Source: Flavobacteriales bacterium (GTDB lineage Bacteria; Bacteroidota; Bacteroidia; Flavobacteriales_F; PHOS-HE28). Taken from it: a stretch of 40,750 nt of DNA. Shown piece by piece: positions 5,801 to 22,825 of the stretch. The stretch spans positions 1-40,750 of the forward strand of contig JBEICT010000002.1 in assembly GCA_040383865.1 (NCBI GenBank), written 5' to 3'. The position numbers were made by a program, and so were the translations under genes. The notes beneath the pieces were generated by a model that did no database searches, was not told the origin of the DNA, and worked only from the letters and a program-made list of their open reading frames with translations. The first letter of the stretch is position 1; every line of letters starts with the position of its first letter.

Positions 5801-8161
5801 TGCTCCCGGCAATGCCGAACCGAAAGGGGTTCCCTGACAATCGACCGGTGTTCCCGCACATGAGCAATCCAAGCTCCAGGTATCGTTGATGGTAAGCGAG
5901 TTCCCGTCGCTGCATGGTGTGCCAGGCAGTGCTCCTCCACCCGCAACACCAAGGCAGTCAAAAGGGGCACCAACGCATTGGCAGCTGGTGTTCCACGTGT
6001 CGTTGCCCGTGTTGGCATTGCCATCATTGCATGGCGAGCCGGGCACCGCCGCCCCACCCGTAACGCCCAGGCAATCGACCAATTGGCCAGTGCAGGCACA
6101 ATTGGTACCGACCACATCATTGATCGTGTTCGGGTTACCGTCGTTACAGGCCGACCCTGGCTCCGGATTCCCACAACCGCATGCACCTGGTGCGGTCTTG
6201 TTCGGATCCGTTGGGCACCCATCCGCCACGTTGCATACACCATCCCCATCGGAGTCCGGCAAAGGCGTGAACACGCAGGACCCACCCGCACATCCATCCG
6301 AGGTACAAGGGTTGTTATCGTTGCACGGGAGCGGCACACCCACACATTGGCACGAGGCGTTCCACGTATCGTTCACCGTGCAGGCGTTGCCATCGTTGCA
6401 AGCCGTACCGGGTGCTGCCGGGCCGCTTGGTACACCCAGGCAATCCGTGGCCACAGGGGTGATCACGACCTGACCGAAGGCACCCAGGCTGAGATTGAAG
6501 TAACTGCCGCTGTACGAGACCTGTAATTTCAGGGCACGCACCATGTAGCGGACCGTGCCGGAAAGGCCGCTGGTGTTGTCCGTGAAGCTGGTGCCGGTCA
6601 CCGCTGTGCTCGTGCGTCGTTCCCAGGTCTGGGTCGCCGTGTTGAAGCGATAGACATGATAACCGGCCAGTCCTGCCTCAGGTGATGCGGTCCAGGTCAC
6701 CGTTGTGTTCTGGCCTGTAGGACTGGTGGCCTGCACGTTCGTAGCAGGGGCCACCACGTGCATGCGCAACGTGGGATCGCCGAGCAACGAAACGTGGATA
6801 CGACCTGCCTGCGGGTTGGCCGGCTCATAATGGCCGTTGCCATTGTTCTGGGTAAGCCTGGTGGAATAGCCGATGGTCTCCCCCAGCCCCATGTGGTGGA
6901 AGAACCAGTTCGGATAACCCGCCCAGAAATTGGCCAGGATGGTGCCTGAACCCAGGGCGGCACGGAGGAAGTTGTCCTGGAAATCCCAATCGCCGAAATA
7001 GCTACCCAGCAGTACCGTAAAGATGCCGCGTGTATAGGTCGATGCGAATTGCGCTGTGCTGCCGACCCCGTTGGCATTCGTCCACCATCCACCACCACAA
7101 CCGTAACTCCAGAGGTGGCTCTGTGTGGACATGGATGTGAAGTAGTCCCCGGCCAACACATTGTTCGGATGCACCAAAGGGCCGAAACCCCGCCAACCGT
7201 TCTGTGAGAACGCATCGGCCATGCCGGTGAAATTGTCATCGATCACAGCCCTATCCTGTGCGGTGATCTGCTTCACCTTCCACTGATGCAGCTTGGTCAG
7301 GTAATTGGCCGTCAAGGTGGTCTCGTCCTGGCTGAACGCCGGCATGTTGAAGAAATCAACGCGGCCTACCGCCAGTTCCACAGAGCTGGGGATCACCGAC
7401 TGATCGAACTTGCCGTCACCGGGCACATTGTGGTTCCTGGTCCATTGGGCCGTGGCACTGTTCACCGAATTATCGGTCCAGGTCCCGTTCATTTCGCCGT
7501 AGTACACATCGGCCACCCATGCACCGTAGTGCTCACCATGGCCATCGGGAGCCAGGTTGCCCGACATAGGCACGGGAACATGGCCAACGATGAATACCGA
7601 GTTCACCTTGGTGGGGTCGGCGTTGTACGCGTTCACTACCAACGCCTTCACACTGGTCACAGGCGCCGTTCGGCTGACGTCATGACGTATTACGCGCCAA
7701 CCGTCGCCTTCCAGATCGCTTTGCAGCTGCGCCAATTGGGTGGCAAGCGAGGTCGTGAACGTATTGTCCACCAACAGCACCATCTTGCCTCGGTCCTCCA
7801 CCATGTCCACTGCGATCCCGGCGTTCACATAACCTTGACCACTCCCCAGGTTCGAGGTGGTACGCACCACCTTGTACTCATAGGAAGTATTGACGCTGAC
7901 GGAATTGTCCACGAACTGAGCGGCCGTTGAGGTCGCCGTACCGATCGCTGTTCCCCAGCTCGTTCCGCCCTTCAACTTTCTGAAAATGGTGAACCCCGTC
8001 GTGTTGGCGTGCGGTGCCCAATTCAGGGTGATCCGCGCAGGGTTGGACTGCACGGTGGCCCAGAGCTGAACGGACCGGTTCTGGCCCAAGGTCTGTGCCA
8101 TGGCAAATGCCGCCAGCAGCCAGAACAGCAGTGTGGCAATGGGCCTTGAATGTTTAAGCAT
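2807..8161 (-). CDS. Giant secreted cysteine-rich repeat protein with T9SS (Por) C-terminal sorting domain
   Basis: The track ORF 2807..8167 starts at TTG; the first ATG (plus 8159-8161) gives signal peptide MLKHSRPIATLLFWLLAAFAMAQ. The head (about 6446-8161) is FN3-like + ~450-aa globular domain + FN3-like. Two blocks of DC.GV.GG.A.PG..CDDG...T.ND.W...C.C.G repeats follow. Asp-rich TSP3-like motifs sit at about 3041-3325 (DLDGDQVLDCNDNC, DVDGVGDPCDNC, DDDDDGVGNACD). The C-terminus IPNPSSGVVRL...IDLSGLPQGTYSITL...VSVVRL (about 2810-3040) fits the T9SS sorting-domain pattern. Confidence 0.9.
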   Translation of the reverse strand: MLKHSRPIATLLFWLLAAFAMAQTLGQNRSVQLWATVQSNPARITLNWAPHANTTGFTIFRKLKGGTSWGTAIGTATSTAAQFVDNSVSVNTSYEYKVVRTTSNLGSGQGYVNAGIAVDMVEDRGKMVLLVDNTFTTSLATQLAQLQSDLEGDGWRVIRHDVSRTAPVTSVKALVVNAYNADPTKVNSVFIVGHVPVPMSGNLAPDGHGEHYGAWVADVYYGEMNGTWTDNSVNSATAQWTRNHNVPGDGKFDQSVIPSSVELAVGRVDFFNMPAFSQDETTLTANYLTKLHQWKVKQITAQDRAVIDDNFTGMADAFSQNGWRGFGPLVHPNNVLAGDYFTSMSTQSHLWSYGCGGGWWTNANGVGSTAQFASTYTRGIFTVLLGSYFGDWDFQDNFLRAALGSGTILANFWAGYPNWFFHHMGLGETIGYSTRLTQNNGNGHYEPANPQAGRIHVSLLGDPTLRMHVVAPATNVQATSPTGQNTTVTWTASPEAGLAGYHVYRFNTATQTWERRTSTAVTGTSFTDNTSGLSGTVRYMVRALKLQVSYSGSYFNLSLGAFGQVVITPVATDCLGVPSGPAAPGTACNDGNACTVNDTWNASCQCVGVPLPCNDNNPCTSDGCAGGSCVFTPLPDSDGDGVCNVADGCPTDPNKTAPGACGCGNPEPGSACNDGNPNTINDVVGTNCACTGQLVDCLGVTGGAAVPGSPCNDGNANTGNDTWNTSCQCVGAPFDCLGVAGGGALPGTPCSDGNSLTINDTWSLDCSCAGTPVDCQGTPFGSALPGAPCNDGDPNTGNDTWNNSCQCVGLPIDCNGVPGGGAVVDLCGVCGGNNDCVVASTCYTLTSVGGNPDGEEAENGNVYNNTGSLDLVFDGEPTPWRGNQVVALRFGNIAVPRDAPILQAYVQFTARGTGNLSPSSLNVALQASDNAQPLGFAPFDLSSRATTSSVPWAPPSWTVTNANGVAQRTSDISTAIGEVVNRPGWSPGNAMVVLIEGEGRRSAWSWDQSQARAARLCITHAAPPMDCLGVVGGGALPGTPCDDGDATTGNDQWTINCTCAGQPIDCAGVPGGSAGPGSPCDDNDPLTGNDTYQQDCSCTGLPLDCLGIPGGPALVGTSCDDGLALTVNDVWTSDCSCEGVPTNDDCLGVEFGGALPGTPCDDGDPLTGNDLWTAACTCIGLPLDCDGVPGGTALPGAPCDDGDPQTGNDSWGVDCACAGVPVDCAGVPDGASWPGSPCNDGDPTTGADTWQADCTCVGLPLDCIGVPGGAALPGSPCDDGLSNTVNDIWGSDCACSGEVVDCLGVIGGTALPGTACDDGNSATGNDVWSVDCTCAGLPLDCAGAAGGAAVPGSPCDDGNASTGNDTWGSDCICSGLPIDCVGLPGGGALPGAPCDDGNAATGNDQWTANCICAGLPLDCLGVPGGAALPGTPCDDGDPATGNDLWELTCGCAGQVIDCLGVSGGTALPGAACNDGDPGTGNDQWTTDCVCAGVPIDCLGAVGGTALPGTPCDDSNASTDNDQWTASCTCAGQVIDCAGVPGGQALPGTPCDDGNASTGNDLWMGNCQCAGEPLDCAGVPGGLALPGTPCDDGNANTVNDTWNSSCICSGLPMDCAGVVNGAAFIDDCGTCAGGTTGITPNPDLDGDQVLDCNDNCVSVPNTAQSDFDVDGVGDPCDNCPWVFNADQADDDDDGVGNACDDVGIHDRSLDVQVRAIPNPSSGVVRLVPDIREARMVTIHDPRGALVDRRAYSPVIDLSGLPQGTYSITLIDVDGRSIARVSVVRL
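3326..5086 (-). repeat. 15 consecutive in-frame 117-bp units (39-aa four-Cys repeat; one unit is 41 aa)
   Basis: Counted by hand from the translation: 14 x 39 aa + 1 x 41 aa = 587 aa = 1761 nt, which matches the coordinates exactly. Cys sits at unit positions 2, 16, 32 and 34 throughout. Confidence 0.9.
5636..6445 (-). repeat. First block of the same four-Cys repeat (4 full units, an 83-aa variant segment, and a terminal DC.GV.GG.AVVD.CGVCGG variant)
   Basis: Hand count: 40 + 83 + 39 + 39 + 39 + 30 aa = 270 aa = 810 nt. The first unit starts at the GAT codon (plus 6443-6445). Confidence 0.8.
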
Positions 8162-8175
8162 GTGCAAAAGGATCG

Positions 8176-8183
8176 CAAATATA
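8176..8183 (-). promoter_or_regulatory. Candidate Bacteroidota-type -7 promoter box TATATTTG for the giant adhesin gene
   Basis: The minus strand reads GGGGGGGGGTTATATTTGCGATCCTTTTGCACATG. TATATTTG fits the TAnnTTTG consensus and ends 14 nt before the ATG. No convincing -33 TTTG was seen. Confidence 0.4.
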
Positions 8184-8184
8184 A

Positions 8185-8193
8185 CCCCCCCCC
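8185..8193. repeat. C9 (G9 on minus strand) homopolymer, running into the 12-nt palindrome CCCGCGCGCGGG (8191-8202)
   Basis: Read directly: ataa ccccccccc gcgcgcggg. It lies immediately upstream (minus-strand sense) of the candidate -7 box. Confidence 0.9.
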
Positions 8194-8453
8194 GCGCGCG
8201 GGAGACCGACCTGCTGGAACATGGGACGGCGACAGATCGTTCGATAAGAGCGACGTATTACCATTCATGATCGACCACCCTTTCTACGTGGTTACCTTCG
8301 CAACGGTTCCGATGAAGCAAACCTTCGACCGGACGATGGCGTAGAAATGGCGGTTGAATAGCCCGGAGCGTGTACGCACCCTCTCAGTTCCCGACCCGGA
8401 AAAGGTTGAAGAACAGGGATTTGGCTTTATGACCTGATCGACTAAAAAAGGAC

Positions 8454-11400
8454 ATGAACAAGGATCGGATGGGATCGATGAACCTATTGGAGCTGATCGC
8501 AGCTTCTTTCAAGCACAGACCTACCGCAACGGCCATTATCTCCGAGGAAAAAGTCCTCACTTATGCCAGGCTCCATGAACACATGGACCGGATGGCCAGC
8601 GTCTTGGCCAAGCATCTGGTGTCGTCCGGTAGTACGGTCGGTCTCTGCCTTGACCGCTCTCCCGAGCTCATCATTGCCGTGCTAGGCATTGTGAAGACCG
8701 GCTCTGCCTATGTGCCCATCGACCCCACGTACCCAGCCGAACGCATCGCAGGGATGCTAGAGGACGCCAAGCCGCCGGTGGTCATCACCAACAAGGTGAA
8801 CCAACACCTCTTCAATGGCACGCAGGCCAAAGTGATCCTCATCGAAGACATTGACCTGGACAACGGTCCGAACTTCGAAGGCGCCTGCCCCGCCACGGCG
8901 GAGGAGCTGCTCTACGTGCTCTTCACCAGCGGCAGCACCGGCCGACCCAAGGGCGTGGCCATGCACCATGCGCCGCTCACCAACCTGATCCAGTGGCAGC
9001 TGCGCACCAGCGTGTGCCGAGAGGCAGATCGCACGCTCCAATTCGCGCCCATCAGCTTCGATGTGAGCTTCCAGGAGATCTTCACCACGTTCGCCCAGGG
9101 CGGCACGCTGGTATTGATCACCGATGAGGACCGCCTGAACAGCACCCAGCTCCTGCGGAAGATCATTGCCCAGAAGATCAACCGGATCATCGTGCCCTTC
9201 GTGGCGCTGCAATACCTCGCGGAAGCGGTGGAGCGCACCGGCGAAGTGCCGTCCACGCTGAAGGAGGTCTTCACCAGCGGCGAGCAGCTGAAGATCACAC
9301 CTGCCATCGCAAACCTCTTTAAGCAACTCCCCGGCTGCCGCTTCTGCAACCAGTACGGACCCACCGAAGGGCACGTGGTGAGCGAGCTCGAGTTGAAAGG
9401 CGATCCGAGCACGTGGCCTGCCTTGCCCAACATCGGAAGCGCCATCGATCACGTGAAGCTTTACGTGCTCGATGAGCAAATGAAGCCGGTGCCGCAAGGT
9501 GAAGAAGGCGAACTCTACCTCGGTGGTGCCTGCGTGGCCAAGGGCTACATCGGTCGTGACGACCTCACTGCCGAGCGTTTCCTCGTGGATCCGTTCATTC
9601 CCGGTGGTCGGCTGTACAAGACCGGCGACCGCGCCGCGGAATTGTCCAACGGCGAGATCGACTACAAGGGCCGCATCGATGGCCAGGTGAAAGTGCGCGG
9701 ATACCGGATCGAGCTGGGCGAAGTGGAAGTGGCCATGGAGAAGCATCCCGCGGTGGAGCAAGCCGTGGCCAACGTGCGCGAAGACCGTCCAGGATTGAAG
9801 CGCCTGATCGGCTACTACGTCGCGAAAAGCGAACTGAGCACCAACGAGCTGCGCAAGCACCTCGCCTCCCTCCTGCCCGACTACATGCAGCCTTCCGCCT
9901 TTGTGGCCGTGAAGGAACTACCGCGCACGCCGAGCGGCAAGATCGATCGCAAGGCACTGCCTGCGCCGGATGTGAAACGACCAGACCTGGATGTGGCCTA
10001 CGCCGCTCCTTCGACCGGCGCTCAAAAGACCCTCGCCAATGTGTGGGCCGATCTGCTCGGCATCGACCGTGTGGGCATCGACGACAACTTCTTCGATCTA
10101 GGGGGCAACTCGCTACTGAGCATCCAAGCAGTGGCACAGTTGGAAGGCCACGGCCTGAAGCTGCCGATCGTGAAGCTCTATCAGCACCCGACCGTACGCG
10201 CTTGTGCCGCATACCTGGAAGGAGATGCAGGCGCCATCGCTCCATCGGAAATGGCCAAGGCTCGCAAGACCGCCACAGGTGGTTCCAAAAAGGGTGACGT
10301 CGCCATCATCGGCATGAGCGGTCGTTTCCCGGGTGCGGAGAATGTGGAGCAGCTGTGGAAGAACCTGCTCGACAAAAAGAACAGCATCAGCACATGGACC
10401 GCGGACGAGCTCGACCCGAGCATCCCTGCGGAGCTGCGCAACGACCCCGACTATGTGAAGGCCCGCGGTGTGATCACCGATGCGGACAAGTTCGACCATG
10501 CCTTCTTCGGCGTGAACCCGAAAGTGGCCGCGTTGATGGATCCGCAGCAACGCGTGTTCCTGGAAACGGCCTGGGCCGCCTTGGAGGATGCCGCGTACGA
10601 TCCCGCACAGTTCGCTGGGCTCATCGGTGTCTATGCCGGCATGGGCAACAACACCTACTTCACACGCAACGTCATCGGTCATCCTGAGCTGATCGAGCAG
10701 GTCGGCGACTTCGCGGTGATGACCGCCAACGAGAAGGACTACATCGCCACACGCCTCGCCTTCGAGTTCGACCTTCGTGGTCCGGCGTTAAGCATCCATA
10801 CCGCGTGCAGTACCTCGTTGGTGGCGATCGCACAAGCGTTCAAGGCGCTGTGCGATGGGGAATGCGACATGGCGCTGGCCGGTGGCATCGCGCTCACCGT
10901 TCCCTTCAACAGCGGCATCGTGTACAACGAAGGTGGCATGTACAGCCCCGACGGCAGCACGCGCACCTTCGACGCCAATGGTAAAGGCACGAGCTTCAGC
11001 GATGGTACAGGCATCATCGTACTGAAACGTCTCGAAGATGCCATCCGTGACAACGACCAGATCTACGCCACCATCAAAGGCGCCGCGCTGAACAACGACG
11101 GCAGCGACAAAGCGAGCTTCACCGCACCCAGCGTGCGTGGCCAGGCGGAGGTGATCGCCATGGCACAGGCCGATGCGGGTGTGAGCCCGAACGAGATCAC
11201 CTACGTGGAGACGCACGGCACCGCCACCCCGCTCGGTGATCCGATCGAGGTGGAGGCACTGACGCTCGCCTTCGGCGGCAAGACCAATGGCCACCACTGC
11301 GTGATCGGCTCCATCAAGAGCAACATCGGACACTTGACCCCGGCCGCTGGTGCAGCGGGAGTGATCAAGACCGCGCTCGCCCTTCGGGAGGAAGTGATCC

Positions 11401-14400
11401 CTTCCAACGTTGGTTTCGAAACGCCGAACCCGGCCATCGACTTCGCCAATTCACCTTTCCGCGTGGCGAACGAGAACATCGCTTGGCCGCGCACCGGAAC
11501 TCCGCGCATCGCAGGCGTTTCCTCCTTCGGTGTGGGCGGAACGAACGCGCATGTGATCCTCGGGGAGCCGCCAGTGGCCAAGGCTTCGAGCGCTTCACGT
11601 AGCAAACAGCTCTTCCTGCTCAGCGCGAAGAGCAAGACGAGCCTCGATGCCATGACGGACAACCTCCGCAACTGGCTCGCAACGCATCCGAAGTCGTCCC
11701 TTGCCGATGCGGCCTACACGCTGCAAGTCGGACGTCGACACTTCAAGCACCGCCGATTGATCGTGGGTGGAAGTCATGGCGAGATGATGGAAGCCATCGC
11801 CAACAAGGACGCCGCAGCGATCGGTACACGCGAGCTGCATGAGGCCGCACCTGGGGTGGTGTTCATGTTCCCCGGACAAGGTTCGCAGTACGTGAACATG
11901 GGTCGGGATCTCTGCGAGTGCGAACCCGTCTTCAAGCAACACTTCGATCAGTGCTGTGACCTGTTCAGCAAGGAATTCGGGACTTCACTGCGCGACATCA
12001 TCTTCCCGAAAGCAGGTGAAGAAGAGAAGGCCGCCGAACAACTGAAACAGACCATCTACACACAGGCCTCCTTGTTCACGATGCACTACAGCCTCGCCAA
12101 GCTGTGGATGCATTGGGGCATCACGCCGGACGCGATGATGGGCCACAGCATCGGTGAGTTCGCTGCCGCCTGCCTCGCCGGTGTGTTCTCCCTGGAGGAC
12201 GCCGTGAAACTGGTGGCCAACCGCGGCCGCATGATGCAGGACCTGCCCGGCGGCAGCATGCTCAGCGTGCGCGCGGCGGAAGCGGATGTGGTCAAGAAGT
12301 TGCCCGCCGGATGCAGCATCGCCGCGAACAACGGTCCGCAATTGTGCGTGGCCAGCGGTCCGCACGAGGCGATCGCGAAGCTGCAGGCCGAGTTGGAGAA
12401 GGACGGCATCACCTGCAAGCTGTTGGTGACCAGCCACGCCTTCCACAGCCCCATGATGGACGCCATCGTGGAGCCCTATCGCAAGTTGGTGGAAAGCGTG
12501 AAGCTGAGCGCGCCGCGCATCCCCATCGTGAGCACGGTGACCGCCGAATGGCTGAAGGACGACGAGGCCACTTCGCCGAAGTATTGGAGCGATCACCTGC
12601 GAGCCACCGTGCGTTTCGCGCAGGCCGTGAAATTCGCGTGGAGCGATGCTGACCGCGTGATGCTGGAAGTTGGTCCGCGTACCACCGCTACAACGCTGGC
12701 CCGCCAGCAGAGCACGGACAACAAGAAACAAGCAGCGGTGCCCTCGTTGGGCGATTCCGCAGGAAACGGCAATGAGCTGACGCAACTGCTGAAAGCCGTT
12801 GGTGGCCTGTGGCAGACCGGCGTGCTCATCGACTGGAGCAAGTTCTACGAGGCAGAGACGCGTCATCGCATCTCATTGCCCACTTACGCGTTCGAGCGCA
12901 TCCGTCACTGGGTGGATCCCGTGGCGATGGTGGCCGATGGTGGTCGAGCCGTGGCCAGCACAACGATCGAGGCCCCCGTACCGAACAGCGGCGATGCCCT
13001 TCTCACCCCCAAGGAAGCCCTCGTCGCGCAGATCAAGCAGCTGCTGGAAGAGAGCTCCGGTCTGGAACTGGCTGAGGTGAGCAATGAGGAGACCTTCCTG
13101 GAAATGGGCCTCGACTCGCTGTTCCTGACGCAGGTCGCGACCTCGCTCAGCAAGAAGTTCGGCGTGAAGATCTCGTTCCGTCAATTGAACGAAGAGCTGC
13201 CCAACCTGGACAAGCTGGCGGACCATATCCTGCCGCATTGGACCAACGCAGGGGCTGTTGCAAGTTCAGGCGCCAAGAGCGACACGGCTGCTGCATCCGC
13301 ACCTGCGATCAATGCCCTCGAGGACGCCCCGGAGCTCAAAAAGGTCTTCGGCGCCCAGGCACGGATCGTGAAGGAGAAGGTGGACGACATGACGCCGCAG
13401 CAACGTGCGTGGTTCGACGCCTTTTTAAAGCGCTACGTGGCCAAGACCGCCAAGAGCAAGGCCTTCACGCAGGAGAACCGCAAGCCAATGGCCGATCCGC
13501 GCGTGGTCACCGGTTTCAAGCCGCAAACGAAGGAACTCATCTACCAGGTCGTGGTGGACAAGAGCAGCGGTTGCCACCTGTGGGACATCGACGGCAACGA
13601 GTACGTGGACATCCTCAGCGGCTTCGGCAGCTCGATGTTCGGCTACATGCCCGATTTCATCAAGGAAGCCTGCCACAAGCAGATCGATACCAGCGTGGAG
13701 ATCGGACCGATGCACCCGCTCGCCGCTGAAGTGTCAAAGCTCTTGTGCGAACTCACCGGTGCCGAACGCGCTGCGGTCTGCAACACGGGGTCTGAGGCAG
13801 TTCTCGGCGCTATGCGGATGGCCCGCACGGTCACCGGCCGTAGCCTGATCATTTCCTTCAGTGGAAGCTACCACGGCATCAACGACGAGGTGATCATCCG
13901 CGGCAGCAAGAGCAAGAAAAGCTACCCTGGCGCGCCCGGCATCATGCCCGAGGCCGTGCAGAACATGCTGGTGCTCGACTACGGTACACCGGAAAGTCTC
14001 GAGATCATCAAGCAACGTTGCCATGAGGCCGCAGCGATCCTGGTGGAACCAGTGCAAAGCCGCCGCATGGAGTTCCGTCCGGTGGACTTCCTCCGCGAGG
14101 TGCGCCGCATCACGCAGGAGAACGGTACCGCGCTGATCTTCGATGAGGTGATCACCGGCTTCCGCACGCACCCCAACGGCACGCAGGCGCTCTTCGGCAT
14201 CCAGGCCGACATCGGCACCTATGGCAAGGTGATCGGTGGCGGCATGCCCGTAGGCGCCATGATCGGCAAGAGCGAATGGATGGACGCCCTCGACGGCGGC
14301 CACTGGCAGTACGGCGACGACAGCGTGCCGCCTGCCGGTGTCACCTACTTTGCCGGCACCTTCGTGCGACACCCGCTGACGCTGGCCGCCATGAAGGCCG

Positions 14401-14927
14401 CGCTGGTGTATATGAAGAACGAAGGCCCCGCCTTGCAGGAGCGCCTCAACACCACCACCGAGGACATGGTGGCGCGCGTGAACGGTCTCTTCGACCAGTA
14501 CCAGCTCCCCTACCGTTGGGTGAACTTCGGCAGCGCGTTCAAGACGAAGTATGACGAGAGCGTCAACTACACCGAGCTCTTCTTCATGCTGATGCGCTAC
14601 CACGGCGTGCATGTGCTGGATTTCCCGCACTTCATCACCACAGCGCATACAACTGCGGACATCGCGTTCATCATCAGCGCGGTGGAGAAGACCTGCAAGG
14701 AGCTGCGCGAAAGCGGCTTCATGCCGGAGCGCACCTACCCCATCCCCGTGGTGAACAGCGTGCTAGGCGGGCATGTGCGAAAGCTGAGCGAGCGTGTGAT
14801 CAGCGCGATGGAGCCACCGGTACCAGGCGCACGCATGGGACGCACGCCGAAAGGCGAGCCCGCATGGTTCGTGCCCGACCCGAATCGGCAGGGCAAATAC
14901 CTCATGGTTGAACTGGACGAGAACTGA
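8454..14927 (+). CDS. Hybrid NRPS-PKS, domain order A-T-KS-AT-ACP-aminotransferase (class III, PLP)
   Basis: A: LYVLFTSGSTGRPKGV, FDVSFQE, NQYGPTE, GRIDGQVKVRGYRIELGEVE, PSGKIDRKAL. T: FFDLGGNSLL (Ser codon 10110). KS: DVAIIGMSGRFPG, HTACSTSLVA (Cys codon 10806), ETHGTATPLGDP, KSNIGHL. AT: FMFPGQGSQY, GHSIGEF (Ser codon 12147), SHAFHS. ACP: LEMGLDSLF (Ser codon 13116). AmT: SGSEAVLGAMRMAR, FDEVITGFR, YGKVIGGGMPVGA (Lys codon 14226). There is no KR/DH/ER between AT and ACP. Alternative in-frame starts lie at 8469 and 8478. Confidence 0.93.
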   Translation: MNKDRMGSMNLLELIAASFKHRPTATAIISEEKVLTYARLHEHMDRMASVLAKHLVSSGSTVGLCLDRSPELIIAVLGIVKTGSAYVPIDPTYPAERIAGMLEDAKPPVVITNKVNQHLFNGTQAKVILIEDIDLDNGPNFEGACPATAEELLYVLFTSGSTGRPKGVAMHHAPLTNLIQWQLRTSVCREADRTLQFAPISFDVSFQEIFTTFAQGGTLVLITDEDRLNSTQLLRKIIAQKINRIIVPFVALQYLAEAVERTGEVPSTLKEVFTSGEQLKITPAIANLFKQLPGCRFCNQYGPTEGHVVSELELKGDPSTWPALPNIGSAIDHVKLYVLDEQMKPVPQGEEGELYLGGACVAKGYIGRDDLTAERFLVDPFIPGGRLYKTGDRAAELSNGEIDYKGRIDGQVKVRGYRIELGEVEVAMEKHPAVEQAVANVREDRPGLKRLIGYYVAKSELSTNELRKHLASLLPDYMQPSAFVAVKELPRTPSGKIDRKALPAPDVKRPDLDVAYAAPSTGAQKTLANVWADLLGIDRVGIDDNFFDLGGNSLLSIQAVAQLEGHGLKLPIVKLYQHPTVRACAAYLEGDAGAIAPSEMAKARKTATGGSKKGDVAIIGMSGRFPGAENVEQLWKNLLDKKNSISTWTADELDPSIPAELRNDPDYVKARGVITDADKFDHAFFGVNPKVAALMDPQQRVFLETAWAALEDAAYDPAQFAGLIGVYAGMGNNTYFTRNVIGHPELIEQVGDFAVMTANEKDYIATRLAFEFDLRGPALSIHTACSTSLVAIAQAFKALCDGECDMALAGGIALTVPFNSGIVYNEGGMYSPDGSTRTFDANGKGTSFSDGTGIIVLKRLEDAIRDNDQIYATIKGAALNNDGSDKASFTAPSVRGQAEVIAMAQADAGVSPNEITYVETHGTATPLGDPIEVEALTLAFGGKTNGHHCVIGSIKSNIGHLTPAAGAAGVIKTALALREEVIPSNVGFETPNPAIDFANSPFRVANENIAWPRTGTPRIAGVSSFGVGGTNAHVILGEPPVAKASSASRSKQLFLLSAKSKTSLDAMTDNLRNWLATHPKSSLADAAYTLQVGRRHFKHRRLIVGGSHGEMMEAIANKDAAAIGTRELHEAAPGVVFMFPGQGSQYVNMGRDLCECEPVFKQHFDQCCDLFSKEFGTSLRDIIFPKAGEEEKAAEQLKQTIYTQASLFTMHYSLAKLWMHWGITPDAMMGHSIGEFAAACLAGVFSLEDAVKLVANRGRMMQDLPGGSMLSVRAAEADVVKKLPAGCSIAANNGPQLCVASGPHEAIAKLQAELEKDGITCKLLVTSHAFHSPMMDAIVEPYRKLVESVKLSAPRIPIVSTVTAEWLKDDEATSPKYWSDHLRATVRFAQAVKFAWSDADRVMLEVGPRTTATTLARQQSTDNKKQAAVPSLGDSAGNGNELTQLLKAVGGLWQTGVLIDWSKFYEAETRHRISLPTYAFERIRHWVDPVAMVADGGRAVASTTIEAPVPNSGDALLTPKEALVAQIKQLLEESSGLELAEVSNEETFLEMGLDSLFLTQVATSLSKKFGVKISFRQLNEELPNLDKLADHILPHWTNAGAVASSGAKSDTAAASAPAINALEDAPELKKVFGAQARIVKEKVDDMTPQQRAWFDAFLKRYVAKTAKSKAFTQENRKPMADPRVVTGFKPQTKELIYQVVVDKSSGCHLWDIDGNEYVDILSGFGSSMFGYMPDFIKEACHKQIDTSVEIGPMHPLAAEVSKLLCELTGAERAAVCNTGSEAVLGAMRMARTVTGRSLIISFSGSYHGINDEVIIRGSKSKKSYPGAPGIMPEAVQNMLVLDYGTPESLEIIKQRCHEAAAILVEPVQSRRMEFRPVDFLREVRRITQENGTALIFDEVITGFRTHPNGTQALFGIQADIGTYGKVIGGGMPVGAMIGKSEWMDALDGGHWQYGDDSVPPAGVTYFAGTFVRHPLTLAAMKAALVYMKNEGPALQERLNTTTEDMVARVNGLFDQYQLPYRWVNFGSAFKTKYDESVNYTELFFMLMRYHGVHVLDFPHFITTAHTTADIAFIISAVEKTCKELRESGFMPERTYPIPVVNSVLGGHVRKLSERVISAMEPPVPGARMGRTPKGEPAWFVPDPNRQGKYLMVELDEN

Positions 14928-14936
14928 GCGAGCAGC

Positions 14937-17900
14937 ATGGAGAAGTTCATCCAAGAACCCCGATTCGTCGCTGTTGACTTCAACCCCTTCATCGGGCCAG
15001 CGATCGAGCGCACCATCCCCACTACGGAAGCACAGCGCGAGGTGCTCACCGCCTCCGAGATGGGCGTGGATGCCAGCTGCGCGTACAACGAGAGCGTATC
15101 CCTGGAACTGAAGGGAGCGCTCGACCAGACCGCACTGGAGCGCGCAATGCACGAACTGGTGAAACGACACGAAGCACTGCGCTCCACGCTCAATGCCAGC
15201 GGCACACGCATGCTGGTGACTGACGAAGTGCGCTTTCATCTGCCCGTCATCGACCTTTCCACGCATAACGAGGTCGAGCTCAGCAAGCAGCTCGATGCCA
15301 TCGCGAGGAAGGACATGACCACGCCCTTCGACCTGCGCCATGGGCCTCTGTTCCGTGCCCAGTTGATCAAGATCGCCAGCGATGCGCACCTGCTACGGCT
15401 ATGCGGCCACCACGTGGTGTGCGACGGCTGGAGCCTTGGCATCATGATGGCCGAGATCAGCGCGCTGTACAATGCATCGAAGAGCGGTGGCATGCCGAAG
15501 CTGCCGGAAGCAAGCACCTTCAGCGAGTACAGCGTCGCCACCATCGACTTCGCGAAAAGCCCCGACCACGCGGTGGTTGAACGTTACTGGCTTGACCTTT
15601 ACAAGGGACCCCTACCCCGCCTCGACCTCCCCACCGACCGTCCACGGCCGAAGCAGAAGACCTACAAGGGCAACCGCCTCGACCTACAGCTCACGCAGGA
15701 CCTGGTGCGCGGCCTGAAGGAAGTGGCCACGCGCAGTGGCGCCAGCTTCGTCACCACCTTGATGACCACCTTCGAGGTGCTACTGCACAAGCTCACCGGA
15801 GACAGCGACATCGTGGTGGGCCTGCCCGCCGCCGGCCAGAGCGATCTGGGCATGAAGCACCTGGTGGGGCATTGCGTGAACCTGCTCGCTCTTCGCAGCC
15901 GCATCGATGAGGAACAATCCTTCATCGAGCATCTGAAGGCACGTCGCACCGGTGTGCTCGATGCCTTCGACAACCAGAAGTACACCTTCGGAACGCTCCT
16001 TCGGAAGCTGAACGTGCCACGCGAGCCAGGCCGCATCCCGCTGTGCCCCGTGGTGTTCAACATCGACATGAACATGGACGATGGTGTGGGCTTCGATGGC
16101 CTTCAGCATCGCTTCATATCGAACCCACGAGCCTTTGAGAACTTCGAGCTGTTCCTCAACGCCACGGGCAACGAAGGGCACCTCACGCTGGAATGGAGCT
16201 ACAACACCGACCTATTCGAAGAGGCCACCGTACGCGGCTGGATGGATCAACTGATCGCGCTCATCCAACGCGTCATCGCTCATCCCAACGCACCCATTGT
16301 TGAACTCATCGGCGATGGGCCCTTGGGAGCGGAGAAGGTGTCGGTACCGACCGAATGGCAAGGGAAGGCCGTGACCTATCCAAAGAGCAAAGGCGTGAAC
16401 ACCTTGTTCGATGAGGTGGTGGCGCAATACCCCGACCGGACCGCTCTCGTGCAGCGAGACCAGCAGTTGACCTATGCCCAACTGCAGGAACGTGTCCTGG
16501 CACTGACCGCATTGCTCAAGGAGAACGGCGTAAAGCCGGGCGACCTGGTAGCGCTCTGCAGCGAACGGAATTTCCGATTGGTGGAAGCACAGCTGGCCAT
16601 CCTCCGTGCCGGTGCCGCCTTCGTGCCCATCGACCACACCTACCCGGCCGAAAGGATCCACTTGTTGTTCGAGGACACGCGCGCCGAACTGCTGCTCACC
16701 GAGAAGGCCCTTGAGAAAGTGCTGCCACCTCATGGGGCACGTGTGATCCTGTTGGACGGCAACGAGATCCCGAAGTCAAGGCTCGCTGACCATGTCCCCA
16801 TTGAAGGCCCGGAAACAGCGGCCTATATCATGTACACCAGCGGCAGCACGGGTAGGCCGAAAGGTGTCGTGGTACCGCACCGTGGCATCGTCAGGCTGGT
16901 GCGCGACCAGAACTACGCACCCTTCGGACCGGACGCGGTCATCACCCAACTGAGCAACGTATCCTTCGATGCCAGCACCTTCGAGCTCTGGGGTGCGTTG
17001 TTGAACGGTGGACGACTGGTATTGCAGCCGCAGTCGAAACCGACGTTGGCAGAAGTGACCGAGACCATCGAGCGTTACGGCGTGAACATCATGTTCATCA
17101 CCACCGGACTGTTCAACGTACTGGTGGATGAACACGTGGACCGTTTAAAGGGCTTAAAGTGTATTCTGACCGGCGGTGAAGTGATGAGCCTGCCGCACAT
17201 CCGCAAGGCACTGAGCGTGTTGGGCCCCGGCGTGTTGAACAACATCTACGGACCTACCGAGAACACCACGTTCAGTTGCTTCCATCCGATCAATTCGGCA
17301 GAGGACATTGGCAAGCAAGTACCCATCGGAAAGCCGATCAACAACACCTTCCTCTATGTCCTCGACGAGCAGCGCAAACCGGTCCCGGTCGGTGCGAAGG
17401 GCGAGCTTTACTGCGGTGGCGACGGCGTGGCATTGGGCTATTGGGAACGTCCCGACCTCAATGAAGAGCGCTTCCTGCACGACCCCTTCAGGGGTGGTGA
17501 CGCACGCATGTACCGGAGCGGTGACCTGGTGAAATGGCTGCCCAACGGCACGCTGGAGTTCCTGGGCCGTGCCGATGACCAGGTGAAGGTCCGTGGTTTC
17601 CGTATCGAGCTGGGCGAGATCGAGAACGCCATCAGTGCGTTCACCGGTGTGCGCGACCGGTTGGTCATGGTGCGCCGTGACATGCCCGGTGATCAGCAAC
17701 TGGTGGCCTACGTCGTTCCGGAAGGGTTCGACCCAACGACAGACCCTGCACAGAGCGAACACTTCCTGGACGGGGTGCGCCAGCATCTGGCATCGGCACT
17801 ACCCGCCTTCATGATGCCTTCGTTCTTCGTGGCCCTTTCATCGTTCCCACTGAACCCGAACGGCAAAGTGGACAAGAAGCTGCTTCCAAAGCCCGAGCTA

Positions 17901-18902
17901 CGCAGTGCCCACATGCGCGCCCAGTATGTTGCTCCGCGCAACACCGAGGAGGTCGGACTTGCCGAGATCTGGTCCAAGGCGCTCGGCGTGGCTGAGGTCG
18001 GCATCCATGATGATTTCTTCGACCTTGGCGGTCATTCCATCATGGGCATCCAGATGCTCGCCCACATCGAGCAGCGCTTCGAGAAGGCCCTGCCGTTGAA
18101 AGCCCTCTTCGAAGCACCCACCATCGCGCAGTTCGCTGCGTTGCTTCGTGGCGACACCACGGACAGGAATTGGAAGAACCTTTCGGCCATTCGGCCAGCA
18201 GGTTCGGGCATCCCCCTGTTCTGCGTACATGGCGATGAGGCCAGCCACTCCCTGCCCAAGTACCTCGACCCCGACACCCCGTTCTATGCCTTCTTCCACC
18301 AAGGTGAGGATGGCAAGGAGATCCGCTATACGTCCGTGGAATCGATCGCGAAGCACTTCATCTCTGAACTGAAGCAAGCACGGCCAGCGGGGCCTTACCT
18401 GCTCTGCGGATATTCGTTCGGTGGCATTGTGGCCTACGAAATGGCGCAGCAGCTTATCGCCATGGGCGACGAGGTGCCATTGGTGGTGGTTTTCGACACC
18501 TACGCACCGGCCATGCACGGCAAAGCGATCGAAAGCGACCTGAAGTTCTACGACCCACTGAAGAAGCGCATCATGCGTGGCCTGGTATCGCAGTATTTGC
18601 GCAATGGCGGCACGGTGCCCACACGTCTGCGGAACTTCCACATCATCGACACCTACGACCGAGCCGCGATGGCTTATGCTCCGAAGCCCTTCAAAGGCCG
18701 GTTGGCCGTGTTCAAGGCCGAACATTCGTGGGGGCCGAACGAGATGGGTTGGAACGAACTGGCCGCGAACGATGTCGATATACATGTGCTTCCCGGCGAC
18801 CACTACACCATGATCGAAGAGCCGCAGGTACAGGCCCTGGCCCGCGAACTTTCGGAATGCATCCGGAGCACCGTGGGGAAGGCTGAAACGGTTCACCACT
18901 GA
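14937..18902 (+). CDS. NRPS termination module, C-A-T-TE
   Basis: C: GHHVVCDGWS (His codon 15408). A: AAYIMYTSGSTGRPKGV, FDASTFE, NIYGPTE, GRADDQVKVRGFRIELGEIE, PNGKVDKKLL. T: FFDLGGHSIM (Ser codon 18036). TE: LFCVHGDE, GYSFGG (Ser codon 18414), LPGDHY. Starts 9 nt after the upstream stop. Confidence 0.93.
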   Translation: MEKFIQEPRFVAVDFNPFIGPAIERTIPTTEAQREVLTASEMGVDASCAYNESVSLELKGALDQTALERAMHELVKRHEALRSTLNASGTRMLVTDEVRFHLPVIDLSTHNEVELSKQLDAIARKDMTTPFDLRHGPLFRAQLIKIASDAHLLRLCGHHVVCDGWSLGIMMAEISALYNASKSGGMPKLPEASTFSEYSVATIDFAKSPDHAVVERYWLDLYKGPLPRLDLPTDRPRPKQKTYKGNRLDLQLTQDLVRGLKEVATRSGASFVTTLMTTFEVLLHKLTGDSDIVVGLPAAGQSDLGMKHLVGHCVNLLALRSRIDEEQSFIEHLKARRTGVLDAFDNQKYTFGTLLRKLNVPREPGRIPLCPVVFNIDMNMDDGVGFDGLQHRFISNPRAFENFELFLNATGNEGHLTLEWSYNTDLFEEATVRGWMDQLIALIQRVIAHPNAPIVELIGDGPLGAEKVSVPTEWQGKAVTYPKSKGVNTLFDEVVAQYPDRTALVQRDQQLTYAQLQERVLALTALLKENGVKPGDLVALCSERNFRLVEAQLAILRAGAAFVPIDHTYPAERIHLLFEDTRAELLLTEKALEKVLPPHGARVILLDGNEIPKSRLADHVPIEGPETAAYIMYTSGSTGRPKGVVVPHRGIVRLVRDQNYAPFGPDAVITQLSNVSFDASTFELWGALLNGGRLVLQPQSKPTLAEVTETIERYGVNIMFITTGLFNVLVDEHVDRLKGLKCILTGGEVMSLPHIRKALSVLGPGVLNNIYGPTENTTFSCFHPINSAEDIGKQVPIGKPINNTFLYVLDEQRKPVPVGAKGELYCGGDGVALGYWERPDLNEERFLHDPFRGGDARMYRSGDLVKWLPNGTLEFLGRADDQVKVRGFRIELGEIENAISAFTGVRDRLVMVRRDMPGDQQLVAYVVPEGFDPTTDPAQSEHFLDGVRQHLASALPAFMMPSFFVALSSFPLNPNGKVDKKLLPKPELRSAHMRAQYVAPRNTEEVGLAEIWSKALGVAEVGIHDDFFDLGGHSIMGIQMLAHIEQRFEKALPLKALFEAPTIAQFAALLRGDTTDRNWKNLSAIRPAGSGIPLFCVHGDEASHSLPKYLDPDTPFYAFFHQGEDGKEIRYTSVESIAKHFISELKQARPAGPYLLCGYSFGGIVAYEMAQQLIAMGDEVPLVVVFDTYAPAMHGKAIESDLKFYDPLKKRIMRGLVSQYLRNGGTVPTRLRNFHIIDTYDRAAMAYAPKPFKGRLAVFKAEHSWGPNEMGWNELAANDVDIHVLPGDHYTMIEEPQVQALARELSECIRSTVGKAETVHH

Positions 18903-18992
18903 AAGGTCCGACCATGATGGAACGGCGTTCAGCGAAGGCCATATCCCTTCCGTCGACACCAGGTTGACCGTTTCTGAACACCCGGATAGCTT

Positions 18993-19751
18993 GTGGCCCG
19001 ATCCATTCGAATGCCACACCGGACCAGACCCCGCTGGAAGAACCTCAGACCATTGCGTCCAGAGGGTACCGGCCCTGCGTTGGTCTGTGTGCATGGCGAT
19101 GAAGCGAACGAACTGCTTCCGAAACACCTGGACCATGAGCGTCCGTTCTACGCCTTCATTCATCAAGGAAAGGACCGCAAAAAGCTTCATCTCCAACAAG
19201 TGGAGGACATTGCGGCCCACTATCTCCAGGAGCTTTTGGCGGCCAGGCCGCACGGGGAATACGTTCTGTGCGGGTATTCCTTCGGGGGCATCATTGCCTT
19301 TGAAATGGCACAGCAACTGCGGTCCATGGGACGCGAAGTGCCGCTCTTGGCGCTTATCGATGCCTATGCGCCCGACCTCCATGTACAGGCATTGGAAAGT
19401 GACCATAGCTGGCGCTCGAACCTGAAGCATGGACTGATGCTGAAGGTAACGGCACCCTTCATCCGTTTGAACCGCCCCATGCCGGCCAAGCTCCATCACC
19501 ATCATATCATCGGCACTTACGACAAGGCCATCCGCTCCTATAAGCCACGGCCTTACGATGGTCAGGTGATGATCCTGAAGGCAAATGACGCCTGGGGACC
19601 CGATGACCTGGGTTGGACCATACACTCCAAACAACTACTGGACCTTCAGCAGGTACCAGGGGACCATTATTCCGTGATCAAGGAGCCGCACGTCGCCGAA
19701 CTGGCGTTCCACATCGAGGAACGCCTGGCTCGAATTGCGACCACCTGTTAG
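18993..19751 (+). CDS. Free-standing thioesterase (alpha/beta hydrolase), paralog of the TE domain of the preceding NRPS
   Basis: LVCVHGDE, CGYSFGGIIAFEMAQQL and VPGDHYSVIKEP run colinear with the upstream TE domain from RWKNL onward. The start is GTG at 18993 or ATG at 19011. Confidence 0.85.
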   Translation: MARSIRMPHRTRPRWKNLRPLRPEGTGPALVCVHGDEANELLPKHLDHERPFYAFIHQGKDRKKLHLQQVEDIAAHYLQELLAARPHGEYVLCGYSFGGIIAFEMAQQLRSMGREVPLLALIDAYAPDLHVQALESDHSWRSNLKHGLMLKVTAPFIRLNRPMPAKLHHHHIIGTYDKAIRSYKPRPYDGQVMILKANDAWGPDDLGWTIHSKQLLDLQQVPGDHYSVIKEPHVAELAFHIEERLARIATTC

Positions 19752-19771
19752 TTATCCTTACTTCGCAGCGC

Positions 19772-20527
19772 ATGGAAGGGCGGCGCTTGACCTTATACTG
19801 TAGTGATACCGAAGTTGCACGCTGGTCCTCCCCGGCAGCGGTCCATGCAAGCCCGGAACACGTGCAATTGTGGTTCGCCGAACTGAGCGACCACCTGGCC
19901 CAACTGGACCAACTGCGTGAACTGCTCGACAAGGAGGAGGTGGCCCGTGCGGAACGGTTCCGGTTCGAACATGACCGCCAGCGCTTCATCATTGGCCATG
20001 GACTTCTCCGGCAAGTGCTTGCACAGCGTTTGAACGCACGACCAAGTGATATCCGCTTCTCCAGGGGGGCTCATGGCAAACCGTACATCCCGGAGGCCGG
20101 GTTCCACTTCAATTTCAGCGACACCAAGGATGCCATCCTCATCGCCGTTTGCCATGGAGCCGAGTTGGGCGTGGATGTGGAGACCATGGCGCGCACCGTG
20201 GACCACATGGCCGTTGGCGAACACTATTTCACACCGGAAGAGGTGGCGGACATCCATGATACTTCAGACCCCAAGCGACGCTTCCTGGAACTTTGGACGC
20301 GAAAAGAAGCGGTGCTGAAGGCCAGCGGGGTGGGCATCATGGACGACCTGAAAGTGCTGCGTGTGAACACGCCTGAACAGATCGTGGAACCGGCCCATGA
20401 GCAGTTCCGGCGCATGGCCGCAGACCAATACCACCTCCGCACCTGGAGCCTGGGCTCCGACCACATCATCAGCCTGGCCACGTCAATATCAAGACCAGAG
20501 GTCGCATTCCATCCATTGTCCTATTGA
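19772..20527 (+). CDS. Sfp-type 4'-phosphopantetheinyl transferase
   Basis: GKPYI, FNFSDT, GVDVE, WTRKEAVLKA. The track ORF starts at 19613 and overlaps the TE gene; ATG 19772 (MEGRRLTLY) lies 20 nt after the TE stop. Confidence 0.85.
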   Translation: MEGRRLTLYCSDTEVARWSSPAAVHASPEHVQLWFAELSDHLAQLDQLRELLDKEEVARAERFRFEHDRQRFIIGHGLLRQVLAQRLNARPSDIRFSRGAHGKPYIPEAGFHFNFSDTKDAILIAVCHGAELGVDVETMARTVDHMAVGEHYFTPEEVADIHDTSDPKRRFLELWTRKEAVLKASGVGIMDDLKVLRVNTPEQIVEPAHEQFRRMAADQYHLRTWSLGSDHIISLATSISRPEVAFHPLSY

Positions 20528-22072: not shown

Positions 22073-22825
22073 ATGAAGAACCTGATGAATTACATCTTCC
22101 CGCTGGCCTTGATCCTGATCGGTCTGATCCTGCTCGTAGTGGGCGGCATGCAAGGCCAGAACACCTGGGTGATGCTGGGTGCCGGACTGGCCCTGTTCGC
22201 CGGTGTGGTGGCACTACTTCTCCAAATGGGCGTCATCAGCCGCTCGGCCGGGCTCGCCATTGGCCTGCTATCCGCTGTGATCGCCGTGTTCGTGGGCTAC
22301 CGCAACTATCGCTCGATCGCCGAAGTGCTGGAGAACGAGGAGAAGCGCAAGAAGAACGACAGCCAGGTCATCCAGGCCTTGAAGGATATCCGCACGGCCG
22401 AGATCGGCTACCGCCAGGCCACCGGCGCCTTCACCGGCAACCTGGACGTGTTGCGCGACTTCGTGAAGAACGGCAGCATCCCCATGGTACGTTCCATCGG
22501 CCAGGTGCCCGATTCGCTGACCGAAAAGGACGCTCTTGCCTTGAAGATCATCGTGCGCGACACGATCATGGCACCGGCGCTGGACTCGTTGTTCCGCACC
22601 GCCAGTGCGATGGAAGGTCGCGTGTATCCCTTCGACCCGGAGAAACTGACGTTGGCCCCCACCTCAGGCAAGCCGTTCATCTTACGGAACGGTGCGATCA
22701 GTTCCAGTGGCCGCAACGTGCCCGTGTTCATTGCGAAGGACCCCCAGCCCTTCCCCGGCACGGACACGCTGATGGTGGGCAGCATGGAAAAGGCCTCCAC
22801 GGCGGGGAACTGGAAAGGGGAGTAA
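22073..22825 (+). CDS. Hypothetical membrane protein (three N-terminal hydrophobic helices)
   Basis: LALILIGLILLVVGG, VMLGAGLALFAGVVALLL and GLAIGLLSAVIAVFVGY, followed by a soluble domain. No motif recognised. Confidence 0.6.
   Translation: MKNLMNYIFPLALILIGLILLVVGGMQGQNTWVMLGAGLALFAGVVALLLQMGVISRSAGLAIGLLSAVIAVFVGYRNYRSIAEVLENEEKRKKNDSQVIQALKDIRTAEIGYRQATGAFTGNLDVLRDFVKNGSIPMVRSIGQVPDSLTEKDALALKIIVRDTIMAPALDSLFRTASAMEGRVYPFDPEKLTLAPTSGKPFILRNGAISSSGRNVPVFIAKDPQPFPGTDTLMVGSMEKASTAGNWKGE

Follow-up and report, generated by a model that had tools for sequence, protein, structure and literature searches.

Within a 40,750-nucleotide (nt) window of contig JBEICT010000002.1 from a Flavobacteriales bacterium (assembly GCA_040383865.1; "the window" is the whole stretch of DNA analyzed here), positions 8454 to 20527 hold a four-gene operon of the nonribosomal peptide synthetase (NRPS) and polyketide synthase (PKS) type. 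We read it as a functional, self-sufficient NRPS-PKS-NRPS line of two proteins, served by its own 4'-phosphopantetheinyl transferase (PPTase), primed with proline, and making an aminated dipeptide-like product; we put the probability of this reading at roughly 0.6. It starts from features observed directly, namely the domains, their order, their catalytic residues, the homology of one domain to the aminotransferase (AMT) domain of MycA, the specificity codes, and the pattern of conservation and selection. The genes and domains are listed below.

8454-14927, + strand: gene 1, hybrid NRPS-PKS A-T-KS-AT-ACP-AmT with a C-terminal tail, 2157 amino acids (aa) (open reading frame (ORF) list, Pfam)
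8508-9941, + strand: A1, loading adenylation (A) domain, code DVQIFSQVVK (Pfam AMP-binding, 8.9e-71)
10029-10217, + strand: T1, carrier (T) domain, Ser553 in GGNSL (Pfam PP-binding, motif check)
10296-11417, + strand: ketosynthase (KS) domain, Cys785-His921-His960 (Pfam ketoacyl-synt, 2.5e-67)
11859-12749, + strand: acyltransferase (AT) domain, Ser1232 in GHSIGE, HAFH as in the malonyl-CoA type (Pfam Acyl_transf_1, 6.8e-54)
13026-13253, + strand: acyl carrier protein (ACP), Ser1555 in GLDSL (Pfam PP-binding)
13545-14729, + strand: aminotransferase (AmT) domain, class III, pyridoxal phosphate (PLP) dependent, Lys1925 in TYGKVIGGG (Pfam Aminotran_3, 3.1e-48)
14730-14924, + strand: C-terminal tail, about 65 aa past the MycA-aligned region (comparison with relatives)
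14937-18902, + strand: gene 2, NRPS termination module C-A-T-TE, 1321 aa (ORF list, Pfam)
15006-16304, + strand: condensation (C) domain, HHVVCDG (Pfam Condensation, 9.6e-93)
16407-17867, + strand: A2, adenylation domain, code DAFFLGITFK (Pfam AMP-binding, 8.9e-86)
17958-18146, + strand: T2, carrier domain, Ser1034 (Pfam PP-binding)
18213-18851, + strand: in-line thioesterase (TE) domain, Ser1160-Asp1187-His1289 (Pfam Thioesterase, 5.2e-23)
18993-19751, + strand: gene 3, free-standing TE, 252 aa, starting with GTG (or alternatively with the ATG at 19011)
19772-20527, + strand: gene 4, Sfp/HetI-type PPTase, 251 aa, from an ATG inside ORF 19613-20527

An initial annotation, made from the nucleotide letters alone, had described four same-strand genes separated by 9, 90, and 20 nt, had given the domain order of each, had called every catalytic signature it checked intact, and had noted that the operon held no tailoring, regulator, or exporter gene. 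The genes and gaps fall at exactly those coordinates, Pfam returned the same domain orders, every residue checked is present (cores A3 to A10 were found in both A1 and A2), and a Pfam scan of the neighboring genes found no tailoring, regulator, or exporter gene in the flanks of the operon either. This architecture with its intact signatures is not attributable to chance. The same annotation had allowed that frameshifts or stops would mean a dead cluster; the four genes contain no internal stops, the motifs are intact, and the ratio of nonsynonymous to synonymous divergence (dN/dS) is very low, so a dead or decaying cluster was rejected. Gene 1 may alternatively start at Met9 (nt 8478), the start used by a 100% identical homologue (P0001).

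We class the AmT domain as a MycA-type beta-ketoacyl-ACP aminotransferase because it aligns over its full length with the AMT domain of MycA, its best solved relative (PDB 6KFM; E value 7.4e-117, 394 bits, about 50% identity), because its PLP lysine, Lys1925 in TYGKVIGGG, is aligned with the TYGKIIGGG of MycA, and because this score lies far above those of free glutamate-1-semialdehyde (GSA) aminomutases (the best at 1.6e-48, 169 bits). The domain sits right after the ACP of a nonreducing KS-AT-ACP module, in which Pfam found no ketoreductase (KR), dehydratase (DH), enoylreductase, or methyltransferase domain between AT and ACP, and C-A-T follows on the next protein after the 9-nt gap. The proposal that the operon follows the ACP-AmT-C-A-T logic of MycA and McyE was therefore well founded, the best solved relative being the MycA domain itself, and both this logic and the parts are already known from MycA/ItuA and McyE/NdaF.

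The resemblance to those systems stops short of family membership. MycA/ItuA (mycosubtilin/iturin, Bacillus) share the order KS-(AT)-ACP-AMT-C-A-T and convert an ACP-bound beta-ketoacyl chain to a beta-aminoacyl chain before NRPS condensation. However, MycA has a fatty acyl-AMP ligase (FAAL) and a long-chain fatty acid where the window has a Pro-like A domain, it feeds a seven-residue cyclic lipopeptide line whereas the line in the window ends one residue later, and only in the window do AmT and C sit on separate proteins. McyE/NdaF (microcystin/nodularin, cyanobacteria), compared here by description rather than by sequence, also have a PKS module and an in-line class III aminotransferase followed by C-A-T, with a beta-amine that later closes the ring, but theirs is a long methylated Adda polyketide made with C-methyltransferase and reductive domains, and their products are large macrocyclic hepta- or pentapeptides. 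An amino-acid-type A1 and a single NRPS elongation module separate the operon from the iturin family, and CM, KR, and DH domains or genes for them, as expected of microcystin/nodularin lines, are missing from the operon and its flanks. Lacking both an upstream chain of fatty-acyl or Adda type and a peptide line of several modules, the operon is outside both families.

What the line is primed with depends on A1. Adenylation domains bind the alpha-amino and carboxylate groups of their substrate through the equivalents of Asp235 and Lys517, and A1 has both; with these residues and an amino-acid-type code, a MycA-like FAAL was rejected as loader, and the earlier description of an amino-acid-type loading domain could be refined to a probable proline-type one. 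The canonical proline codes are DVQLIAHVVK and DVQFIAHVVK, of the type DVQ(L/F/Y)IAHVVK, and FDVSxQEIF and N(H/Q)YGPxExHVV are motifs of Pro-activating A domains. A1 contains FDVSFQEIF and NQYGPTEGHVV, and its code DVQIFSQVVK, in a hand reading against published codes, equals the canonical Pro code at 6 of 10 positions and shows conservative changes at the other 4. Both A-domain codes were read by fixed spacing from the core motifs, which is how positions 278, 330, and 331 were set. Canonical codes, DVQFIAHVVK or DVQYIAHVVK, occur in many loaders of the wider A-T-KS-AT-ACP-AmT family, and the intermediate codes DVQFIAQVVK and DVQFFAQVVK bridge these to DVQIFSQVVK. By its code and the motifs around it, A1 is predicted to fall in the proline clade.

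Ordinary elongation C domains (TycC, bacitracin, teixobactin) are the nearest solved structures to the gene 2 C domain, A2 is predicted to be Ile/Val-like, and the in-line TE best matches solved terminal type I TEs (AB3403, NocB, EntF), the type II RifR reaching only 2e-4. Gene 4 matches Pfam ACPS plus AASDHPPT_N and retains the metal- and CoA-site motifs FNFSDT, GVDVE, and WTRKEAVLK, in agreement with its first description as an Sfp-type PPTase; we assign it to the two-domain Sfp type, and it is HetI-like in NCBIfam at 5.1e-37, under the equivalog cutoff. Single-chain A-T-KS-AT-ACP-AmT-C-A-T-TE proteins exist, for example in Spirosoma, and these fused versions show that genes 1 and 2 work as one line. 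The gene 1 tail of about 65 aa is kept in the relatives split into two proteins and was not detected in the fused ones, which suggests that it serves as a docking element for gene 2.

We infer the steps of the pathway from this domain order and from established chemistry. Gene 4 would turn the three carrier domains into their holo forms, A1 would activate L-proline or a close cyclic imino acid and load it on T1, and AT would place malonyl-CoA on the ACP, allowing the KS to form 3-oxo-3-(pyrrolidin-2-yl)propanoyl-S-ACP by decarboxylative Claisen condensation. Because the module has no reductive domain, the beta-keto group would persist until AmT transaminates it, probably with Gln as the amine donor by analogy with MycA (PMC3870968), to a 3-amino-3-(pyrrolidin-2-yl)propanoyl thioester, a vicinal 3,4-diamine. 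With a proline-type loader, amination would yield a 3,4-diamino acid and not a beta-amino fatty acid. The C domain would then couple it to Ile (or Val) loaded by A2 on T2, and the TE would release either a linear pseudo-tripeptide by hydrolysis (C13H25N3O3, [M+H]+ 272.197) or, through attack of the beta-amine, a seven-membered lactam (C13H23N3O2, [M+H]+ 254.186). In iturins and microcystins the AmT-installed beta-amine is the nucleophile that closes the ring, and by the same closure the lactam here would be a 1,4-diazepane-2,5-dione. The most likely predicted product is thus 3-amino-3-(pyrrolidin-2-yl)propanoyl-Ile/Val, linear or as the seven-membered lactam. With Val in place of Ile, the expected [M+H]+ values would be 258.181 (linear) and 240.171 (lactam), and with Gly, as predicted for Pedobacter, 216.134 and about 198.124.

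Several points weigh against this reading. The product is a prediction from sequence. Release mode is not predictable from sequence, and for many TEs a seven-membered lactam is less favored than hydrolysis. Neither literature searches nor the named relatives, with MIBiG beyond the scope of the search, revealed a characterized pathway with this domain order or with an amino-acid- or Pro-primed AMT module, and a search of this kind does not formally exclude a characterized relative. The codes, moreover, were read by hand against a GrsA fragment, with substrates called from published codes and not by a predictor, and A1 has I, F, S, and Q at positions 278, 299, 301, and 322 where canonical Pro domains have F/L/Y, I, A, and H. 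With 4 of the 10 positions deviating, the starter could be some other or modified cyclic imino acid. The same line would then take up a proline analogue (pipecolate, 4-hydroxy- or 4-methylproline, azetidine-2-carboxylate, thioproline) or another small amino acid and make a related but different diamino dipeptide, and the high variability of position 299 in the wider family (I, F, M, N, Y, T, V) speaks for such latitude. We nevertheless regard another starter as unlikely, given that no gene for a nonproteinogenic imino acid lies in the operon or its conserved flanks, that the motifs surrounding the A1 code are those of Pro-activating domains, and that relatives carry codes intermediate to the canonical ones.

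A further point against proline-primed synthesis through gene 2 is that the free pyrrolidine NH, gamma to the thioester, could form a lactam, a pyrrolizidinone, and so free the chain from the ACP ahead of condensation. After transamination, attack of the pyrrolidine nitrogen on the ACP thioester would give 1-aminopyrrolizidin-3-one ([M+H]+ 141.102), and gene 2, a TE, or both would then acylate the 1-amino group with Ile/Val to an N-aminoacyl-1-aminopyrrolizidine resembling lolines or absouline. Established chemistry suggests that a five-membered lactam from a gamma-amino thioester is very favorable, the proline nitrogen is unprotected because the loader has no C domain upstream, and this operon has two TE paralogues. 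Yet the gene 2 C domain looks like an ordinary elongation type, with an intact HHxxxDG and a canonical donor-acceptor site upstream of A2-T2, the fused single-chain versions retain the order AmT-C-A-T-TE, and most relatives have a single TE. Taken with its acylation step, early off-loading seems to us improbable.

Counterparts of the proposed loader are known from imino-acid-primed NRPS-PKS lines. SwnK (swainsonine) extends a cyclic imino acid with one malonyl unit on an A-T-KS-AT-...-ACP module. Detoxin/rimosamide-type Pro-PKS modules, of the same A-T-KS-AT-...-ACP layout, also extend a cyclic imino acid by one malonyl unit (PMC12828459). Both have an imino-acid-primed NRPS-PKS loader like that proposed for gene 1, but theirs are lines that reduce the beta-ketone by a KR, whereas the module in the window would transaminate it and so yield a vicinal diamine instead of an amino alcohol.

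The description of the operon as an orphan holds, no characterized homologue having emerged from the literature or the named relatives. The operon is far from isolated. A scan of GTDB species representatives gave 206 loci, 79 of which were retained, and the gene 1 architecture was already catalogued in 2013 for Pedobacter heparinus C6XWU5, as "A-CP-KS-AT-CP-PLP1" with the prediction "Nrp-Mal-Gly", uncharacterized and without a product (PMC3870968). The architecture of that protein and of other Bacteroidota A-T-KS-AT-ACP-AmT proteins is identical to that of gene 1. Surveys find that NRPS/PKS clusters of Bacteroidota generally have no MIBiG matches (PMC9248904, PMC12181424). As orphan clusters of the NRPS-PKS kind abound, finding one is in itself no surprise.

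By these comparisons, the operon belongs to a large, vertically inherited, uncharacterized family and is no isolated oddity. Full-length homologues 78 to 100% identical to gene 1 make up more than 120 clusters at 90% identity, and all the named ones come from metagenome-assembled genomes (MAGs) labeled "Flavobacteriales bacterium". The retained loci are nearly all from uncultured Flavobacteriales MAGs (66 to 94% identity), many from activated sludge and lake series; together with the DUF3822 gene downstream, they confirm the Bacteroidota origin first assumed for this DNA. The lineage keeps one gene order, giant protein gene(s) on the minus strand, gene 1, gene 2, in some cases gene 3, gene 4, a helicase gene on the minus strand, DUF3822, RsmD, CoaD, and a thioredoxin-like gene, and in more than 50 loci the housekeeping genes around the operon keep this arrangement. 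A search with the ACP-AmT region against 1.84 billion representatives showed A-T-KS-AT-ACP-AmT in at least 47 of the best 150 clusters (50% identity), and the names found among the cluster members of 20 distant representatives were exclusively those of uncharacterized proteins from Echinicola, Spirosoma, and Pedobacter and from Bacteriovoracaceae and Rhodocyclaceae MAGs.

Outside the lineage, full-length gene 1 relatives at 47 to 50% occur in a Flavobacteriaceae MAG (L075), Pedobacter cryoconitis (L078), and Larkinella bovis (L079). In P. cryoconitis and L075, gene 1, gene 2, and the PPTase gene stand alone as a unit in unrelated surroundings, so that the core set recurs in three unrelated genomic contexts, counting the Flavobacteriales lineage. 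The three-gene unit of P. cryoconitis (gene 1 at 46 to 48% identity to that of the window) differs in a predicted Gly as second residue versus Ile/Val in the window and in an A1 code, DVQFIAQVVK, closer to canonical Pro. The gene 2 homologue of Larkinella bovis (L079 16506-22859) carries a methyltransferase inside its A domain, and a Cupin_8 (JmjC-like) gene comes after it, so that the product there is probably methylated and perhaps also hydroxylated. The A1 code of this relative, DPEHIAKTIK, is unlike the proline codes, and no PPTase gene turned up beside its gene 2. A MAG labeled Verrucomicrobiota (L050, contig JBDKKE010000300.1) has gene 2 and a gene 1 at 69% with the invariant A1 code, reflecting either a mis-binned Flavobacteriales contig or horizontal transfer.

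Conservation within the family is uneven. Mean identity to the window is 90% for AmT (up to 99%), 88% for KS and AT, and 80% for A1, and it falls to 65% for C, 54% for A2, and 51% for TE. The A1 code is identical in 120 of 120 close homologues and the same in all related Flavobacteriales loci but one (L060, 66 to 67% identical), which has DVLIFGQVVK. Nei-Gojobori codon analysis gave AmT dN values of 0.009 to 0.015 at dS values of 0.5 to 0.8, while the same genome pairs at similar dS gave dN values of 0.24 to 0.37 for RsmD and 0.15 to 0.22 for CoaD; with dS near saturation these dN/dS figures are rough, but the trend they show is clear: purifying selection acts more strongly on gene 1 than on the housekeeping genes that flank it. 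The conservation of gene 1 does not stem from recent transfer, and a recent horizontal acquisition or mobile island was rejected on uniform composition, fixed synteny, and flank-like dS. The very low dN of AmT, the identities domain by domain, and the recurrence of the gene set in three contexts argue that the pathway is functional and not decaying.

Gene 2, in contrast to gene 1, is plastic: it diverges, duplicates, and swaps specificity. Most loci have the A2 code DALWLGGTFK (Val), the subgroup of the window has DAFFLGITF/YK, some loci have DAFLVGAVIK or DALFVGVILK, L013 and Pedobacter have DILQLGMIWK (Gly), and L075 has a Thr-like code. Three loci place two complete C-A-T-TE genes in tandem after a single gene 1 (L002 14983-23015; L057 10436-18453; L063 10547-18545), with unlike A-domain codes in the two copies (DALVMGGVMK-type and DALWLGGTFK), which implies two alternative products from one diamine precursor, and in a fourth (L016 16488-23558) C-A-T comes before C-A-T-TE, which makes the line three modules long. 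The very tight constraint on gene 1 and the variability of gene 2 together suggest that the diamine core stays the same while the second residue changes.

That gene 1 is conserved beyond the adjacent housekeeping genes suggests that the operon matters to the physiology or ecology of its hosts and does not make a dispensable antibiotic. Such selection and the fixed chromosomal position, more typical of core physiology, together with the absence of an exporter from the operon, would also suit a larger pathway, in which the dipeptide is an intermediate passed to enzymes encoded elsewhere for amine acylation or for attachment to lipid or the cell surface. We give this little credence because the three-gene set recurs alone in unrelated contexts, which argues for self-sufficiency. 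For the self-sufficient line, we offer, tentatively and as a conjecture that may well prove wrong, that the proline-derived vicinal diamine with its variable hydrophobic residue is an undescribed scaffold with a core, lineage-defining function in abundant uncultured Flavobacteriales of activated sludge and fresh water. This would explain why gene 1 is more constrained than its housekeeping neighbors while gene 2 diversifies. Ring closure may turn the scaffold into a 1,4-diazepane-2,5-dione, or the scaffold may serve as a bestatin-like, metal-binding aminopeptidase inhibitor or as a signal.

The interest of the operon lies in the pairing of an amino acid starter with a MycA-type aminating module, predicted to yield a dipeptide that contains a 3,4-diamino acid, and in its standing as a fixed, vertically inherited trait, at one chromosomal position in more than 70 species-level MAGs of an uncultured wastewater and freshwater lineage. 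As a minimal self-contained system of three or four genes, it should express easily. Natural variants, including A2 exchange, tandem gene 2, an extra module, and gain or loss of the free TE, form a ready-made series for studying how such lines diversify, and because Pedobacter cryoconitis is cultured, genetically tractable, and equipped with the orthologous three-gene unit, the question is directly testable; genetic tools have been published for two strains of this species other than L078 (PMC12181424).

Gene 3 stands somewhat apart from the other three genes. Its description as a free TE was correct, in that it is free-standing with an intact Ser96/Asp123/His225 triad (Pfam Thioesterase, 2e-22); it is not a core part of the operon, most relatives being without it. 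It was found in only about seven loci, the window, L003, L042, L046, L047, L068, and L070, and the closest fully covered relative of the window (L032) does not have it. Over 233 aa, gene 3 and the gene 2 in-line TE share 48% identity, the free TEs form a clade of their own, sister to the in-line TEs, in a neighbor-joining tree without bootstrap, and the best partial NCBIfam matches are the terminal TEs of Pks13 and EntF. A classical editing TEII of the RifR/SrfD/GrsT type was rejected in favor of a paralogue of the in-line type I TE. From this identity, sister clade, and patchy presence, gene 3 reads as an old paralogue that has mostly been lost since. It is an accessory gene, one that probably assists release or editing.

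Upstream of the operon and on the minus strand lies the gene for a 1786-aa giant repeat protein, separated from the divergent gene 1 by one further feature.

8168-8453, no strand: intergenic region of 286 bp between the divergent giant-protein gene and gene 1, the presumed promoter, A-rich before the gene 1 ATG

Downstream follow genes for a RecD-like helicase (minus strand), DUF3822, RsmD, CoaD, a thioredoxin-like protein, a NUDIX protein, and other housekeeping functions, and base composition is even across the whole window. Rfam gave zero matches in the window, so no known riboswitch or other RNA was found upstream of gene 1, and counts of sigma-70 promoters and intrinsic terminators between 8000 and 20800 did not exceed those in shuffled sequence, such scans being uninformative for Bacteroidota.

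The giant proteins are two tandem paralogues, at 2807-8167 (minus strand) and about 689-2554 (minus strand), the second running off the left end of the window. Each has a signal-peptide-like N terminus, an N-domain of about 560 aa, a thrombospondin-type-3-like Asp-rich stretch, and about 25 tandem 39-aa Cys-rich repeats (DCxGVPGGxAxPGTPCDDGNxxTGNDxWxxxCxCxG), and nothing in Pfam or NCBIfam matches them above cutoff. They adjoin gene 1 in all Flavobacteriales loci and not in Pedobacter, Larkinella, or L075; because gene 1 occurs there without them, they are probably neighbors and not members of the pathway. Three plus-strand ORFs (686-1129, 1226-1837, and 1991-2482) look conserved in related loci and were rejected as cluster genes, being antisense frames of the second giant-protein gene, which tblastn with the giant protein recovers at 50% identity over 631 aa on the minus strand.

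Among transporter genes, an AI-2E family gene divergent from gene 1 in L075 (5761-6840, minus strand) is the only candidate exporter beside any family member. In the window itself, an ABC exporter-type gene (ABC_membrane plus ABC_tran, 608 aa) sits among housekeeping genes at 28032-29858 (plus strand), about 7.5 kb past the downstream end of the operon. Between the helicase and DUF3822 genes, a 250-aa ORF at 22073-22825 (plus strand) has no family match and is kept, at 53 to 64%, in some related loci only (L001, L003, L020, L024, L033, L039, L046, and L071).

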